Shown here piece after piece: positions 6,545-14,074 of a stretch of 64,000 nucleotides of DNA. The notes below the pieces were generated by a model. It ran no database searches. It had not been told where the DNA came from and saw nothing but the letters and a program-made list of their open reading frames with translations. The stretch covers positions 95,730,228 through 95,794,227 of the forward strand of contig JARDVH010000059.1 in the NCBI GenBank assembly GCA_030324005.1, read 5' to 3'. The DNA is from Negaprion brevirostris. Its lineage: Eukaryota. Numbering within the stretch: the stretch's first letter is position 1; every line of letters starts with the position of its first letter. Both the position numbers and the translations under genes were made by a program.

Positions 6545-8083
6545 TATTAAGATGGCTGCTAGAATGGGACCAAAAATTCAAAAGGGGTTTTAGAATGGCT
6601 GAAAATGCAAGGGGCAAGGGGAATGATGCCAAGCAAATATGAAGAAAAAAGAAATCAGAGCTGTTTAAATTAATCCCCATCCTGTCTATAACAATCCACA
6701 CACNNNNNNNNNNNNNNNNNNNNNNNNNNNNNNNNNNNNNNNNNNNNNNNNNNNNNNNNNNNNNNNNNNNNNNNNNNNNNNNNNNNNNNNNNNNNNNNNN
6801 NNNAGCAAAGACATGAACAGCCTCCAAGCTTGGGTTGACAAGTTGCAAGGAATGCTCTTGCCTCAGGCAGTGAACAACTCAAGCAAGAGCATCTAATCAC
6901 TTACCCAATGACATCACCATCATCAAGTACCCCACCTTCAACATCCTGGTAACTCCATCACCACCAAACCAGATAAACATCACTGGTTCAGTGAGGACCG
7001 TAGACAAAAACACAAGAGCAACACGAGCATTTTGGAAAATAACCTGATAAAATCACAACTCAGGACTTGATGCATGATAAGCAGAAAATAATGACAGGCA
7101 GACCCAAGTGACTTTACAACAAATTAACCAGGTCAAAGTTCTGTAACCCTGTCACATTTAGTGATAAATGGTGATGTTGGAAAACAATTGTCTTACTTTC
7201 AGCACATTGCTGCAGGAGTTTCCTCATTGCAGAATCCCAGGTTTAACATTGTTTATTAATTCTTGAGATGTGGGTATCATTGGCAAGGCCAACATTTATT
7301 ACCCATCCCTAATTGTCCTGGAGAAGACAGTGGTGAGCTGCCTTCTTGAACCACTCCAGTCTGTATGGTAAAGGTAGGGTTCCAGGATTTTGATCCTGCG
7401 ACACTGAAGAGTCAGCAACATACTTTGAAGTTAGTACATTGTAAACAGTATACACAGCAGCCATGTTGCACCTGTGGTGGAAAGACTGAATGTTTAAGGT
7501 GGCAAATGGGGTGTTGAACAGGCAAGTTCTTTTGTCCTGAATGGTGTTACTGGAGCTGCACCCATTCAGTTGAAATAGCATATTCCATCACATCTCTGAC
7601 CTGTGCTTTATAAAGTGATCAATGGGCAAGGATTCTGGAAGTGAGTTGCTTGCCACAGAATTCCCAACTTTTGATGGTGGAAATACCATACATAGGCAAG
7701 GCTCCCTGATTGGAAGGCAATCTTGTATTTATGTGATTAGTCCAGTTAAGTTTCTTGTTTATAGGAACTCCAGGATGTTGAAGGTGGGGTACTTGATGAT
7801 GGTGATGTCATTGGGTAAGTGATTAGACGCTCTTGCAAGAGCTGTTCACTGCCTGAGGCAAGAGCATTCTTTGCAACTTGTCAACCCAAGCTTGGAGGCT
7901 GTCCATGTCTTTGCCNNNNNNNNNNNNNNNNNNNNNNNNNNNNNNNNNNNNNNNNNNNNNNNNNNNNNNNNNNNNNNNNNNNNNNNNNNNNNNNNNNNNN
8001 NNNNNNNNNNNNNNNNNNNTCTTTTTTCTTCATTCTAAAACCCCTTTTGAATTTTTGGTCCCATTCTAGCAGCCATCTTAATA
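6545..8083. repeat. Near-identical inverted duplication; each arm contains an N gap
   Basis: 6545-6597 is the reverse complement of 8031-8083; 6805-6949 approximates the reverse complement of 7770-7914. Confidence 0.85.
7255..7914 (-). mobile_element. L2-like LINE 3' region
   Basis: LEWFKKAAHHCLLQDN C-terminus and aataaatgttggccttgcc 3' tail on the minus strand. Confidence 0.75.
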
Positions 8084-8659
8084 TTCCAGCACTTATTTTC
8101 TGCTCCCACAAAGCCAGACTGAATGGAGACTAAACAACGATACAAATTGTTTGAAAATTCAGACAGATAGTTCACTGTGCTTTTGGCTGGCTTTACATCA
8201 ACAGCAAGTTATTCCAAGTTCCACTTAGCCAGCACTCTAAAATCTGTCCTAAAACACTGTTGAATAAAGGTTGAATAAATGTCAAAAGAAATTGAGATTC
8301 ATTACCAGAAAACTTTAATCCAGCACAAAATGTTTTTCAAGTCAGTCATAAGCATGACTATAAGCCCCGTAATCAGGCATTAAGCATGTAAATTATGCTG
8401 GAGAAATAGTAGTTTGTTTTGTTCTTCTCACAAATGGTTTTCCTATCCTATGAGGTGACAAAGCTAATGGATGATAGTAGGCTAGCTGATATTTTAATTC
8501 TTGATTTCCAGAAAGTCTTGTCAGACAGAATGCAATTGGATAACATTTTATTGTATAGGTGAAATAATTCCTCAGAGGCTGGTTCCCTTTACCGTACACA
8601 GGCGAGGATCCCTGATTGGCAGGCAATTGTGACCTCAATTATGACCTCAATTAGGGGCA

Positions 8660-8870
8660 TCTTTTTGCATTCAACTGAACAAACAAAATCAAACTAACTT
8701 AGGGACAATTCAAAAAGGGCAGCTCCCTAAAAGGAGGGAAACCGCCCGAAACAAAAAATACAAAGTAGAAACAAAACTTAAAACATCAAATTAAAATCTG
8801 ATTAAAGGGGTCAATAATACACCCCAATTCTTGTGATGCCCAGCGAGCACGGAAGACATCAACAGAGCCC
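8660..8870 (-). mobile_element. 5'-truncated Tx1-clade LINE inserted in the 3' LTR
   Basis: Minus strand encodes GSVDVFRARWASQELGCIIDPFNQILI* (Tx1-like ORF2 end) then a T-rich 3' UTR ending AAAAAGA. Flanked by duplicated ct(c/t)aattagggg. Confidence 0.75.
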
Positions 8871-9959
8871 CTTAATTAGGGGCATCTTTTGGTGGTGACC
8901 TCAATTAGGGAGTTCATACTCCAAGAGGCCAACCTCATGTGTCTCACTGAAGTCATTACACCTCTCCTCCATTAAGTCCAAGGAATCTCAGCAGTTCATA
9001 CACCTCATGGGTCTCTTGCAACGTTTCAGCACTGGGTTGGGACTTGGCATCTGATGTGGGAGGAGAGTATCTAACAGGCACCCGTCTCTTAAGGTGTAAG
9101 CATCGGAGTTCTAGTTTGCCCCCTCCCTTGGGTGGCAGAGGAGTAGCCACAGCTTTGTCTGTAGTGCCCATTTCAGACTTCAAGGTCCTAACTACAGCCA
9201 ATGGAGAAGCAGGACTGGCCAGTCTAGGAGAACACTCCTCAGTTCTTGGCCCTCTGGGCATTGTTGGCTCCAGGGCAAACTGTGATTGAAGCCCACACCT
9301 GGTTTAGATGTTTTTTCAGGATGACCTCACCACATGTAGGGTGTAGCCCCGTCTGAGATTCGATTGTTCCAGATAACCATGCTTTCTTTACCCAAACTTT
9401 TTCACTGGCCTCCAACTCTCTCCCTCCTGGCTGTTGTTGTCATGGCCTTTGCATTTGGCTTTTTGTTGCTTTTCTACCTTATGCACCAGGGTTTGGGGAT
9501 AGCCAACTTAATCTGGCATGGAGTTGGTTGTCTGCCCATGAGCAACCCGGCAGGTGCTATTACTGTAGTGGCATGGAGGGGTTATCCTATCAACAAAAAC
9601 CCTACAGGAGGGCTTGGTGTTTATTGATGCTGCTATGTTTTTCTTGATGTAGTTCAGCCAGTATGGCATAGAGGCCTTGACTCAGAACAACCACTTGTGT
9701 CCCTCATAGCAGTTTTTCGTCTTCTACCATGAGCTGTTCTCATCTACTCCAGTAAGGGTGGAATTGGGGCAGTACTGACTTTTCTGTTTCCCCCACGAGA
9801 ACTAAGTGTTTAACTTTTGCATCCAAAAACGTATATTATGTGCAGCCACTGAGAAAAAAATTCATAGGTATTACCGTCTCTTCTACTTGGGATACTATCA
9901 GTGGGGTGTCTGCTGTACTTAAGGAATCTGCGTTTGCCACTAAGCCTCCCAGCCTATGC

Positions 9960-10260
9960 TCCTAGGATCCTTACAGTGCAGAGAGAGGTAATTTGGCCCA
10001 TTGAGCCTGTACCAACAACAATCCTACCCAAGCCCCATCCCCATAATCCCACGCATTTACCCTGGTTAGTCCCGCAACACTAAGGGGCAATCAGCAAGGC
10101 AACACATCTTTTGAACTGAGAGAGGAAACTGGAGCAGTTAGAGGAATCCCACGCAGACACAGGGAAAATGTGCAAACTCCACACAGTGATCTGAGGCTAG
10201 AATTGAACCTGGGTCCCTGGCACTGTGAGGCAGCAGTGCAAACCACTATGCTGCTGTGCT
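9960..10260 (-). mobile_element. HE1-type V-SINE inserted in Gypsy pol
   Basis: Reverse SINE head (actgtgaggcagcagtgc), V domain and tail. Confidence 0.8.
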
Positions 10261-12104
10261 CCAACTGATAATTGTAAGCTGCCAATAATAATGCCCATTG
10301 CTGGATCTAAGGCAACGCTAATGGTGGCATCACTTTGTCCTCTTAGTAGTCCCATTAGCAGCTTGAAATTGGTGACAATCAGAAATTTCCACCATAAAGG
10401 TATTGATGAAACTTCTTTGCTCCAAATATTACTGCCAACCCTCTTTTTCAATATGGGCGTACTTTCTTTCTGCTATAGTCAAGGTCCTGGAGGTATGTGC
10501 TATTGGTTTTTCTCTCCATTTGGCCATCTATGTGCTGATACTGCCCTGATGCCATATGGTCACATCACAGGTTAGCACTAACTCTTTTCTAGGATCATAA
10601 TGTGCTATGACATTCAACGATGACAGGTGTTTCTTTATTTTCTTAAAAAGTCTTGACCGATGGACCATTCCCAAGCTTGATCCTTTTTTAGCAGTTGATA
10701 GCCATACTAAGATGGAGGCCCAATTTGGTATGAATTTTCTGTCGTACATCATCAGCTATAAAAATGACCTTAACTCCTGAATGGAGGTGGGAGCCCACAC
10801 TTGGTCCTCCAAAGGATGTAGACGTGACTTGTCAACTTTACAATCCAGATAGGTACTTGAGGTACCAGGAAGATGCATTTTTCCCTCCTAAAGCACATGC
10901 CGGTTCTTGAAAAACTAAGGATTTCCTCCAGACTCTAGATGTTCTACCTTTGTTTTACCTGAATTGAGAACATCATCCAAGTAAACGGTGACCTGAAGTA
11001 AATTTTGTAATGTGTTCTCCAGAAAATTGAACAGGCTGATGATACCCCAAAAGGTAACCTTGTGTTTCATCATGGAATATTCCTGAAATTCCATGATTCT
11101 ATGAATCCTCATCCAGCTGCAACTGTAAATAAGCATGACTCATATCGAATTTTGAGAATTAAGAGCTCCCTGCCAACTTTGCATATAATTTCTCAATCTG
11201 GGAATTAGGTATTTGTCCAGCTGTGAATTGCAGTTTATTGTTTGTTTCAAGTCCCCACAAAGACAGAGTCAACCATCTGGCTTCAAAAAAGGCACCACCA
11301 GTGCTACCCATTCTGCAAACTGGACAGGTTTTATGATACCTTCTAGTTCCAGTCTTCTAATTTCTATTTCCATTTTTTCCTTTAAAGCAAATGTACTGGA
11401 TGGGCCTTGCAAAATCAGAGGACTGCATCCTGGTCGGCATGTAATATTGCTTTGGCACCTTTCATGGCTCCTAGCCCTTCCAGGTATTTGAGCAGGACTT
11501 CACTCAAGCAACCATTTCCAACTGGAAGATGTTCACCCAATCCAAATGAATTTCTCTCAAACTGCTTTGCCCCATTAGGCTTGGGCCCAAGCCCACCACT
11601 ACCATTAATGGCAATCCAACCAGTTGCTTTTCGTAAGAGACAGGATCAAAGGTTACACCCGTAACTCTCAAAGGTTCCTCTGTATTAGTTCTCAGACATG
11701 CCAAATCTTTATTGAAGTCCAATGCAAGTTTAACTGACCATTGATTTTCTGACCACCAATAGGGCCGCACCTGTATTGACCTCTATTAAGCTCCATTTAA
11801 TCTTACGGTTATCTTAATTGCGTCCAATTTGGACATTGCTATGCAGTTTAATTGTTCCCCTTCGAATATAGGTGGCCCTTCCAAGGTGTGCACTCTCCTT
11901 GACACCAGCCTACGTATCGTTTTCCTAAATCTGGGTCGTGGAAGCTTACCTTGCTGCTCTGACTCCACATACCAGCAACAGTTACAATGCCTTGTCTGGC
12001 AGGATTCTGAAGGAACTGTTGACTGCCTGGTTAAAGCTTGGCTTAGTTTTGGAGCTGGGTTTAATTGTAACTGGAACCTTCCTGAGAAAGGCTGTGTAAA
12101 GGCT

Positions 12105-12337
12105 GTGGGACCTCTACAGGAGTGATGGTCTGCACCTGAATCAGAGGGGAGCCAATATCTTNNNNNNNNNNNNNNNNNNNNNNNNNNNNNNNNNNNNNNN
12201 NNNNNNNNNNNNNNNNNNNNNNNNNNNNNNNNNNNNNNNNNNNNNNNNNNNNNNNNNNNNNGGGTCATTGCTTTTTTAATTGGTCGGCGCAACATCGTGG
12301 GCCGAAGGGCCTGTTCTGCGCTGTAATGTTCTATGTA
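12105..12337 (+). mobile_element. CR1 LINE inserted in Gypsy gag, mostly hidden in an N gap
   Basis: Left of the gap: WDLYRSDGLHLNQRGANI (CR1 ORF1 SGNH esterase motif). Right of the gap: HER1-like tail gggccgaagggcctgttctgcgctgtaatgttctatg. Confidence 0.7.
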
Positions 12338-13164
12338 ATTGCCTGCACTCAAATGGTGGTCCCTGAACCCAGTCGAATTAGCGTCGATGTCCATTTCCAT
12401 TGGGATACCTTTCAATTCATATGCCCACTTGCTGCATTTTCCAAAAATAAGGCCTGATGTAGCACCTGTTTGTAGTCCAGTTTTGCTTCCACCAACAAGA
12501 ATTTTTGGATAGTTACATTATTTATCCCACATATCAAATGGTTTCTTAGCATCTCATTAAGCATTAACTCAAATTCACAAGCTTCCACCAGTCATCTCAA
12601 GCTTTTTAAGAAACCCATTACAGACTCCCCCATTTGCTGAATTGTCAAGTAAAACAGGTACCTCCTCAGATCTGACATGGTTTATATTCCCTCACGAGGT
12701 CCGCCAATTCCTCGAAGGTTCTGGTATCTGATGCTTCCGGGAAGGTTAAGCTGTGAATAACGGCAAATGCCAGCAGTTCACAAGTGGTCAGAAGAATTAC
12801 CCATTGCATTCAATCTGCCGCAATATCATTAGCCCTAAAAAAAAAGTAACACATGCTTTCCATATATTGGGCCCAGTCCTCCACAGCCAGATCTAAAGAG
12901 TCCAGTTTCCCAAACAGAGGCATGATGCCTGAAAATGGCTTATTCCCAAGCAAAGCCTGCTGTTGGTGAGCCAGGTTCCTTGTGGTCATTCTTTTTTCTC
13001 ATCACCACTGAAATAACTCCTAGAGGCCGGTGTCCTTTCACCAGGTTCCCTTTATTTGCAAACTCCATTCCACTCCTAGATCGCTTCTGGTACACAGTCA
13101 GAACACCTGACACTCACATTTTTATGTACAGGTGAAGCTCTTTAATTGGCAGGCAATTATGACC

Positions 13165-13477
13165 ACTTTTTTTTGGGCCAAGCAAGTAAGGGGATAAATT
13201 AAAAATGGGCAAGTCCCAAAAGCAAGGGAACCACCCAAAACAAAAGACAAAGTGGAAAGGAAACTAAAACAAAATGCAATTAAAGGAGTCAATAATGCAC
13301 CGCAGTCCCTGCGGTGCCCAGCGGGCATGGAAGGTGTTAACGGTGCTCTTGCACACCTCATGCTCCCTCTCCAAGGCCACCTGGCCACAAATATAGTCAT
13401 GGTAGAGGCGCAGACAGTTGGGTTGGACGACTGCCTCCGTCACCCGCTGCCGGACCTGTTTATGGCAAGTTCAGGCC
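13165..13477 (-). mobile_element. 5'-truncated Tx1-clade LINE inserted in the 5' LTR
   Basis: Minus strand encodes ..LAINRS..EAVVQPNCLRLYHDYICGQVALEREHEVCKSTVNTFHARWAPQGLRCIIDSFNCILF*, with an A-rich 3' end. TSD attatgac at 13156-13163 and 13478-13485. Confidence 0.8.
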
Positions 13478-14074
13478 ATTATGACTCAATCAGGGAGTTC
13501 AAGAGGCCAACTTCATGCACCTCATTATTACAATAGGATCAGCAGTTAGGTGTTTGGTTGGATAGCAAATTGTTGCATTCTTGCACAGCAAGTGAGTAAT
13601 AAAGAAAGTCACAATGCATGGAGCCAAATTACAAATGGAGTTCCACTTGAGGTCACTGCTCTTCACCATTCTCAAAAGTAGTCTGAATGTGGGTGTTAAC
13701 AGTACCATTCACAGGTTTGCTGATGACACAAAAAATGTGCACTGGAGTTGTGAACTGGCTGATACATTTTTGGAAGTGTATCTATTTGTGACAGATGTCC
13801 CTCTGTATGACTTTATGCAGTGTGACAGATGTGGGTCTAGGTCACTCAAGTATCTGTATAACGTGCAAGAATTCTCAATTAAAGGTTGCAGAGCAGAAGG
13901 ACTGGGCAGGGGTGTAAGGGGTTTTACAGCGGATAAAACAGTGATGGTCCATAAACTTTTGTGACTGGACTACTGACAAAGAAAATATGGTTTTAAGATA
14001 TATTGATAGAAACACTAATTGGCTTGTACAGGAGGTGGTATAGCTATATTTAGGTAACCATGTCCAACCTGAGC

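Follow-up and report, generated by a model that had tools for sequence, protein, structure and literature searches.

Paired insertion sites of sister Tx1-clade LINE subfamilies in a Gypsy LTR family of Negaprion brevirostris, with an LTR-derived head on long copies

Results

Both LTRs of one Gypsy element carry Tx1-clade inserts

A 64,000-nucleotide stretch of the Negaprion brevirostris genome (GenBank assembly GCA_030324005.1, contig JARDVH010000059.1, positions 95,730,228 to 95,794,227 of the forward strand; hereafter the window) harbors a decayed long terminal repeat (LTR) retrotransposon of the Gypsy type on the minus strand at 8560–13532, with the sequence ATAGG flanking it on either side. 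As the original prediction had noted, both of its LTRs carry the 3′ ends of Tx1 long interspersed nuclear elements (LINEs) in the same orientation (here located at 8658–8869 and 13165–13471), and both inserts lie on the minus strand, in the orientation of the Gypsy element itself. Analysis of copies across the genome showed that this arrangement is not due to chance: a Tx1-clade family targets the Gypsy LTR in a fixed orientation, at two join sites that are tied to two subfamilies, here referred to as A and B. The inserts in the window and their target copies are as follows.

8641–8657, no strand: 17-bp copy of the target adjoining the 3′ end of the A insert
8658–8869, minus strand: 5′-truncated Tx1 LINE of subfamily A, 212 bp, comprising the end of open reading frame 2 (ORF2) and the 3′ untranslated region (UTR)
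8870–8882, no strand: 13-bp target duplication between the A insert and the stub
8883–8894, minus strand: 12-nt Tx1 stub, consisting of the 3′ terminus of subfamily A only
8895–8911, no strand: 17-bp target duplication on the 5′ side of the stub
13150–13164, no strand: copy of the target adjoining the 3′ end of the B insert
13165–13471, minus strand: 5′-truncated Tx1 LINE of subfamily B, about 307 bp
13472–13485, no strand: duplicated target bases next to the 5′ end of the B insert, 8–14 bp, the first of them shared with the LINE

The left LTR thus reads target (17 bp), long insert, target (13 bp), stub, target (17 bp). Because the last target copy equals the LTR sequence over all 17 bases, the stub probably inserted first and the long insert second. 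The stub had been proposed to be a third, extremely truncated insertion; it is an insertion, and its exact form is 12 nt with 17-bp duplications. In the right LTR, positions 13150–13164 are repeated at 13472–13485 with one mismatch, and the first 5–6 bases also match the LINE (microhomology), so that the duplication originally given as attatgac is present with a corrected length of 8–14 bp. The two 3′ junctions, placed ~10 bp apart in the same prediction, are separated by 11 bp (LTR positions 198 and 187).

The left and right inserts share 74% identity over 149 bp in a BLAST alignment and 78% in a global alignment. Identity of the left insert is 0.844 to subfamily A and 0.795 to B, while that of the right insert is 0.825 to B and 0.809 to A. 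With different subfamilies, sites, and duplications, the two are confirmed as independent insertions, and each has a target duplication of its own. On the left side, contigs from other runs span the junctions, those of the stub among them, which contradicts a chimeric assembly there. A pair of contigs from run X15, ~4–6% diverged, has the insert and the stub and lacks the 12-bp repeat at 8630–8641; since the repeat is absent from these contigs of a related organism, it is not needed as a fourth insertion, and reading it as the scar of an empty insertion is no more than a possibility.

The inserts belong to at least two sister subfamilies of a Tx1-clade LINE

Searches of the same genome with the two window inserts returned 2,216 and 2,159 candidates, of which 40 were scored for each. 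A long copy tied to the window inserts through its 3′ end (L067, 5.9 kb) contains a reverse transcriptase (RT) piece matching RVT_1 (E 4.6e-16), for which the only named transposon match is Xenopus Tx1 ORF2 (59%), with ray and shark proteins among the matches. Its endonuclease piece aligns with residues 3–97 of Xenopus Tx1 ORF2 (31%, E 1e-11); searching the broken frame of this piece gave no Pfam match. Based on these RT and endonuclease matches, the LINE is assigned to the Tx1 clade, with a predicted apurinic/apyrimidinic (AP)-type endonuclease at the start of ORF2. Its copies show 5′ truncation and target duplications, the marks of target-primed reverse transcription (TPRT).

In a tree of 91 copies built with the tail omitted, all 19 copies joined at LTR position 187, including the right insert of the window, fall into one group of 42 rows (support 91/92). 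This group contains only 1 of the 29 copies joined at position 198, and the left insert of the window lies outside it; a second tree agrees. These results show at least two sister subfamilies whose cut sites lie 11 bp apart. The long copies fetched for a comparison of endonucleases were gapped, and none had a clear B end.

Another set of copies (L129, L130, L137, L140, L147, L152–L155, L158, L051, L052, and L054) carries a different tail, type C, with joins mostly after TC. This set probably represents a sister lineage that lost the target or never had it.

The target is an abundant LTR family that is filled at one region

A 24-base LTR pattern has 633 exact matches genome-wide and is matched exactly by 4 of the 50 LTR halves found beside LINE copies, from which the family is estimated, within wide bounds, at ~7,900 copies or about 0.07% of 2.69 Gb. 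Complete copies are ~235 bp long and mostly solo, and a 5-bp duplication with at most one mismatch flanks 25 of 45. Two LTR types occur in a 45-copy sample, with the window LTRs belonging to type II, and a third type is found beside long LINE copies. The target site lies in U3, about 35–50 bp upstream of a TATA-like box and upstream of the second of two CCAAT-like boxes (all labels assigned from sequence).

Occupancy was scored in the first 90 matches to the 24-mer in contig order, three of which were unreadable. Inserts were found in 13 of the 87 readable LTRs, all of them at the target site; eight are longer LINE pieces and five are stubs, with 3 of the 13 scored by eye. At ~15% filled per LTR, a doubly filled element is expected in ~2% of elements. 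The window, with both LTRs filled, is an ordinary product of this system.

Several other rearrangements were observed in this part of the LTR. The spacer between the inverted CCAAT-like arms is flipped in L100 and L114 (both among the 90), in the LTR beside the L065 LINE, and in the 3′ flank of L347, while in L190 and L210 the LTR start is duplicated head to head at this place; judged by these structures, the inverted arms look recombinogenic. Two LTRs (L183 and L169) have the 17-bp target in tandem with no insert between the copies, possibly from nicks repaired without cDNA. L099 contains an element with inverted ends inside the LTR at the same target region. The third LTR type is accompanied by a further LINE subfamily (L288, L295, L298, L300, and L067), which forms a separate group (Shimodaira–Hasegawa-like approximate likelihood ratio test (SH-aLRT) value of 97) and has its own tail, stubs, and stacks of several copies.

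Genome-wide joins fall at two positions 11 bp apart

Four LINE-anchored searches, whose queries contained no LTR sequence, yielded 120 loci. Leaving out duplicates (L056, L060, L069, L091, L097, L131, and L156) and one locus with no junction (L058) reduced these to 112, and 105 remained after exclusion of rows whose tail was not anchored; by eye, three of the latter are on-target (L012, L016, and L023) and four are off (L020, L022, L032, and L044). Seven rows were moved by hand between tail classes, and L133, with a weak LTR match, was counted as off-target. Of the 105 copies, 66 adjoin the LTR: 43/54 with tail A, 23/38 with tail B, and 0/13 with tail C. The 3′ flanks are therefore not random, and the proposal of a Tx1 lineage that uses a Gypsy LTR as its target is supported; that the lineage belongs to a shark is suggested by the ray and shark proteins among the RT matches, in agreement with the species name of the assembly. 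Compared with the 20% flank threshold for target specificity given in the text of Kojima 2015 (PMC4494074), A and B lie above it and C (0/13) below.

The bases preceding the join are AATCAGGGA for subfamily A and, at a distance of 11 bp, ATTATGACC for subfamily B. LTR position 198 is the join in 36 copies (27 on type I and 9 on type II LTRs) and position 187 in 21 copies (20 on type II and 1 on type I), with three elsewhere. Target duplications measure about 12–19 bp for A and 9–18 bp for B; because they are similar in length and the joins are 11 bp apart, both nicks are shifted by ~11 bp. One LTR (L257) contains both a B and an A insert. A single shared junction was not seen: 5′ breakpoints occupy 32 distinct positions among 49 mapped copies, and a cluster of breakpoints at 402 mixes subfamilies and LTR types. 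The copies thus derive from independent events, with some truncation hotspots. The original idea of one Tx1 family at one motif holds as far as LTR targeting is concerned, and is replaced in its other part by at least two subfamilies and two sites, together with the LTR-derived head described below.

Sequence and LTR context both contribute to target choice

The LTR contains a YAATYA core twice, with 11-bp spacing, each 6–7 nt before a nick. Away from the LTR, A copies mostly join after GGGA-like bases, which are found in both copies of the duplication, while B copies join after CC and C copies after TC. A secondary target is a very abundant unrelated repeat with CAATTAGGGA, on which stubs are found as well (L235, L246, L250, L073, and L071).

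Among 30 A joins matching the decamer, assessed by eye, 24 are in the LTR and three in the unrelated CAATTAGGGA repeat. Exact 19-mers number 5,216 for the repeat and 1,306 for the LTR site, and with 24 against three joins despite a repeat that is four times commoner, the LTR is favored about 30-fold. Sequence therefore matters, and LTR context adds to it by this factor. Three off-target B copies (L049, L134, and L145) contain one or two extra C residues absent from the target, which would fit pairing between the RNA end and the primer.

At three further loci (L317, L321, and L329), upstream of the head described below, another retroelement is joined by its AT-rich 3′ end to these target bases as they occur within the head of the LINE; this retroelement is a probable second user of the target site.

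Twelve-nucleotide stubs are the commonest product at site A

Among the first 30 of 166 exact A joins, 16 are stubs of 11–14 nt (mostly 12), 11 are longer inserts, and three are unclear. Stubs, 12 of which were called by script and four by eye, and one of which is the window's own, are thus the commonest class at site A in the sampled junctions. The B joins (n = 13) include one 12-nt stub and one of ~20 nt. Stubs retain duplications of 16–18 bp, are without microhomology, occur in runs of two or three, and are also present on the unrelated repeat. We read them as reverse transcription that stopped after about one turn, and their structure would suggest that one turn of cDNA can suffice for the second nick and for completion of the event.

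Two other origins were considered. Later deletion between microhomologies is disfavored by the full 16–18 bp duplication and by a stub length that does not change between type I LTRs, type II LTRs, and the unrelated repeat. A 3′ RNA hairpin behind the 12-nt stop is not supported, as the predicted pairing in A copies spans positions 4–15 from the end and does not mark position 12; in a hairpin test of five single copies, z ranged from −1.95 to +1.26.

Long copies carry the downstream half of the LTR in front of the 5′ UTR

In two long copies, a whole LTR is fused to the LINE 5′ UTR. With the UTR start as the sole query, 32 matches were obtained; of 30 loci, 25 had the UTR anchor. LTR sequence lies directly upstream and on the same strand in 20 of these 25 UTR-anchored copies (the query's locus included) vs. 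4 of 50 random stretches. Such heads often consist of the whole downstream half of the LTR (CCAAT–TATA–R–U5), and the U5 motif lies 31–58 bp before the UTR anchor in 14 copies. The other five copies comprise one that is UTR-truncated and adjoins the LTR start with a duplication, two that are UTR-truncated, one with a misplaced anchor (U5 motif present), and one partial piece.

At L343, one solo LTR with a 5-bp duplication has its downstream half both before and after the LINE. The order is LTR start, short LINE piece, downstream half without its last 12 bases, LINE (from 5′ UTR to 3′ end, with gaps), and downstream half again. Three copies with heads (L343, L347, and L351) cluster with subfamily A. 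The LTR type of the head is I in L313 and L324 and III in L314, L323, and L331. The R–U5 part of the head is closest to the copy's own 3′ flank in L343 and L346, which are two of the three testable loci. On this sequence evidence, a full insertion would rebuild an LTR-like promoter in front of the LINE, and the head may be both used as a promoter and renewed.

Four copies (L315, L316, L318, and L319) share ~250 bp of conserved, partly repeated sequence upstream of R–U5, possibly marking a lineage with its own promoter.

The host element

The remaining features of the Gypsy element in the window are as follows.

8555–8559, no strand: left copy of the 5-bp Gypsy target duplication ATAGG (from sequence)
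8560–8960, minus strand: 3′ LTR with internal deletions, belonging to type II of the ~235-bp family; contains the A-type LINE insert and the stub
8610–8619, no strand: arm of an inverted repeat, formed by the two CCAAT-like boxes that bracket the target (from sequence)
8630–8641, no strand: 12-bp tandem repeat within the spacer of the target; the run X15 contig lacks it
8961–8976, minus strand: polypurine tract (PPT) beside the 3′ LTR
8977–12161, minus strand: decayed Gypsy pol region with protease-, RT-, and RNase H-like parts and many stops and frameshifts (PF17919, E 7.4e-11)
12162–12261, no strand: assembly gap of 100 N within the Gypsy element
12340–12997, minus strand: decayed gag-like region, no Pfam match
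12998–13007, minus strand: sequence resembling a primer binding site (PBS), with a TGG start, 1 base from the 5′ LTR
13009–13532, minus strand: 5′ LTR, type II; contains the B-type LINE insert
13533–13537, no strand: right copy of the 5-bp Gypsy target duplication ATAGG (from sequence)

The element has the marks of Ty3/Gypsy, namely TG...CA LTR ends, a short target duplication, a PBS, and a PPT. Its frames were translated with X at stops before the Pfam search, and the match to the RNase H family PF17919 lies downstream of RT-like motifs, an order that would fit Ty3/Gypsy. The same search gave no match for protease, RT, or integrase, and an integrase upstream of RT was not seen. From the look of such reading frames, we take 12340–12997 to be gag-like, and gag and pol are collinear across the 100-N gap. 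Over their aligned parts, the two LTRs are 88% alike (110/125) vs. 80.6 ± 2.9% for 105 unrelated LTR pairs of the same type. An Rfam search of positions 8000–14000 gave no match, and a PDB search with the RT-region frame returned chance matches only.

Abundant short repeats are inserted in the Gypsy interior at 9960–10260 and 12262–12335, the first of which presumably resembles a shark or ray short interspersed nuclear element (SINE). Outside the element, positions 7684–7725 contain a 38–42 bp match (82–87%) to the CCAAT-like arm region of the LTR, inside another repeat and without LTR ends around it.

Discussion

A probable promoter parasite of a Gypsy LTR

Together, these data show that two sister Tx1 subfamilies inserted independently at sites 11 bp apart, and the LTR-derived head likely makes the LINE a promoter parasite. 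In such a mechanism, the AP-type endonuclease would nick the antisense strand of the LTR by reading its sequence (the YAATYA core), a few bases at the RNA end would pair with the nicked primer, and TPRT would begin; most events would then truncate, many of them after exactly 12 nt. Later steps are put forward with less assurance. Because the site lies upstream of the second CCAAT-like and the TATA-like boxes, insertion would separate the LINE from the promoter, and the head would therefore restore it. The LINE RNA would start in R of the LTR, and the end of the cDNA would switch to the target LTR's own strand, copying TATA and CCAAT back to the second nick. More tentatively, we propose a wider model in which an autonomous LINE lives off the LTR promoter and rebuilds it with each full-length insertion, the subfamilies co-diversify with LTR types and move their cut by one helical turn from one copy of the core to the other, and the 12-nt abortive product corresponds to a discrete early step of TPRT.

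A number of observations weigh against this explanation. About 20% of A and 40% of B copies lie off the LTR, and if part of the secondary repeat family arose after the LINE, as may be the case, the 30-fold preference would be inflated. Support for the A/B split is moderate (91/92, SH-aLRT 87–90, bootstrap unsettled), and identity between A and B (0.817) is close to that within B (0.830). Type I LTRs are without a canonical TATA, and the TATA and CCAAT labels are sequence-derived. Neither window insert is long enough to include a head, and no headed B copy was seen among the UTR-start loci. At L347, where the flank has a flipped spacer, this flank is not the best match to the head, which fits inheritance better than copying from the target; in L315, L316, L318, and L319, only a short R–U5 piece stands behind other conserved sequence.

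Alternative explanations

The main rival retains sequence-specific targeting and differs in the head, which would belong permanently to the 5′ UTR after one or a few captures, inherited through the RNA rather than rebuilt from the target, and either supplied with an internal promoter or a passenger. The L347 head, unlike its own flank, speaks for inheritance, as do lineage-specific R–U5 changes that are absent from LTRs (shared by L336 and L340, and by L315, L316, L318, and L319) and the similar distance of the head-to-UTR joint in the 14 copies measured. Heads of LTR types I and III, however, have differing ends within the last 15 LTR bases, which calls for repeated capture or renewal, and an RNA containing CCAAT and TATA must start upstream, where only ~60 bp of LTR is available. 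We regard an inherited head as rather unlikely. Far less probable is that an active LTR promoter attracts the LINE by tethering (CCAAT-binding factors being one example) or by its open chromatin, or that a hairpin of the inverted arms does so, with sequence playing a minor part. The location of the site between two inverted CCAAT-like arms, the flipped spacer in two of the 90 sampled LTRs (L100 and L114), the about 30-fold preference for the LTR over a repeat with the same decamer, and the spacing of the two sites by one helical turn would all be in keeping with it. It accounts poorly for base-precise joins in a fixed orientation and for the joins outside the LTR, which follow the same bases and show full duplications and 12-nt stubs (L235 and L246); in the passages available of PMC1950540, the Xenopus Tx1L endonuclease is moreover sequence-specific in vitro. 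Tethering and sequence reading can also combine.

Hitch-hiking or artefact, in which one U3 insertion was copied to both LTRs by Gypsy replication and then eroded, or a scaffold joins two elements, is scarcely credible. A U3 insertion in the 3′ LTR would reach both LTRs through LTR replication, and there is an N gap within the element. A single ancestral insertion is nevertheless rejected by the subfamily tree, the identities, and the distinct joins and breakpoints, with two inserts of different subfamilies, sites, and duplications in the window and 32 breakpoints in 49 copies; a scaffolding error is countered by the matching 5-bp duplication, the collinear genes, and the left junctions bridged by other runs. 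We therefore retain independent insertion, with the LTR-derived head as a probable promoter.

Relation to known target-specific LINEs

Tx1 is among three groups rich in target-specific LINEs, according to the part of PMC4640811 consulted. LTR targeting by the clade had been thought undescribed when the window was first interpreted; this does not hold, since two crocodilian Tx1 families, Tx1-8_Crp and Tx1-4_AMi, are reported to prefer LTR retrotransposons (Kojima 2015, PMC4494074). They resemble the present family in being Tx1-clade LINEs with this preference, while the main text of that source gives for them no site, LTR superfamily, paired cut sites, stubs, or LTR-derived head, and its supplement may contain site details. 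The closest named protein, Tx1L of Xenopus laevis (59% for the RT piece), likewise has an AP-type endonuclease and targets another transposon. Its target, however, is the DNA transposon Tx1D rather than an LTR, and the passages available describe no target-derived promoter head (PMC1950540). The Tx1L nick is followed by AGTT (PMC1950540) and site A here, no more than one base from the join, by AGTT or AGCT, a resemblance that serves as a lead only.

Acquisition of target sequence at the 5′ end has parallels in SINEU-2B_Crp, whose 5′ extension derives from Mariner-N4_AMi, and in R2, which is co-transcribed with 28S rRNA (both in the text of PMC4494074). Like the present LINE, these are target-specific, are thought to be transcribed from the target, and have target sequence 5′. 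In those cases, as described there, the target sequence is the upstream flank, whereas the present head is the downstream part of the target, belongs to an autonomous LINE, and includes the presumed core promoter. For SART1Bm and R1Bm, which are also AP-endonuclease LINEs but belong to the R1 clade and target telomeric repeats and ribosomal DNA, short pairing between RNA and target has been proposed to set the start of reverse transcription (in the passages seen of PMC7265360).

Within the literature searched, whose coverage was limited so that absence is weak evidence, only PMC4494074 names LTR-targeting Tx1 families, and no shark case, LTR-headed LINE, or 12-nt stubs were found. Tx1 elements were thus already known to target LTRs; the present system differs in its two paired sites, its stub of fixed length, and a head that resembles a promoter.

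Implications

In the available text of PMC4494074, LTR targeting by Tx1 occupies one sentence, and the present system provides its base-level anatomy. Sister subfamilies with nicks 11 bp apart, together with a third that is off target, form a natural series in which to study how specificity is set by an AP-type endonuclease and an RNA 3′ end, a question that bears on insertion tools built from site-specific LINEs. Beyond the advantage of a safe haven, the head suggests why this target was chosen, in that the LINE may need the LTR promoter; if true, this LINE shows one solution to the loss of an upstream promoter at each round of copying. The Gypsy family, with inserts in the promoter region of ~15% of its several thousand LTRs, may in turn have been damped by the LINE.

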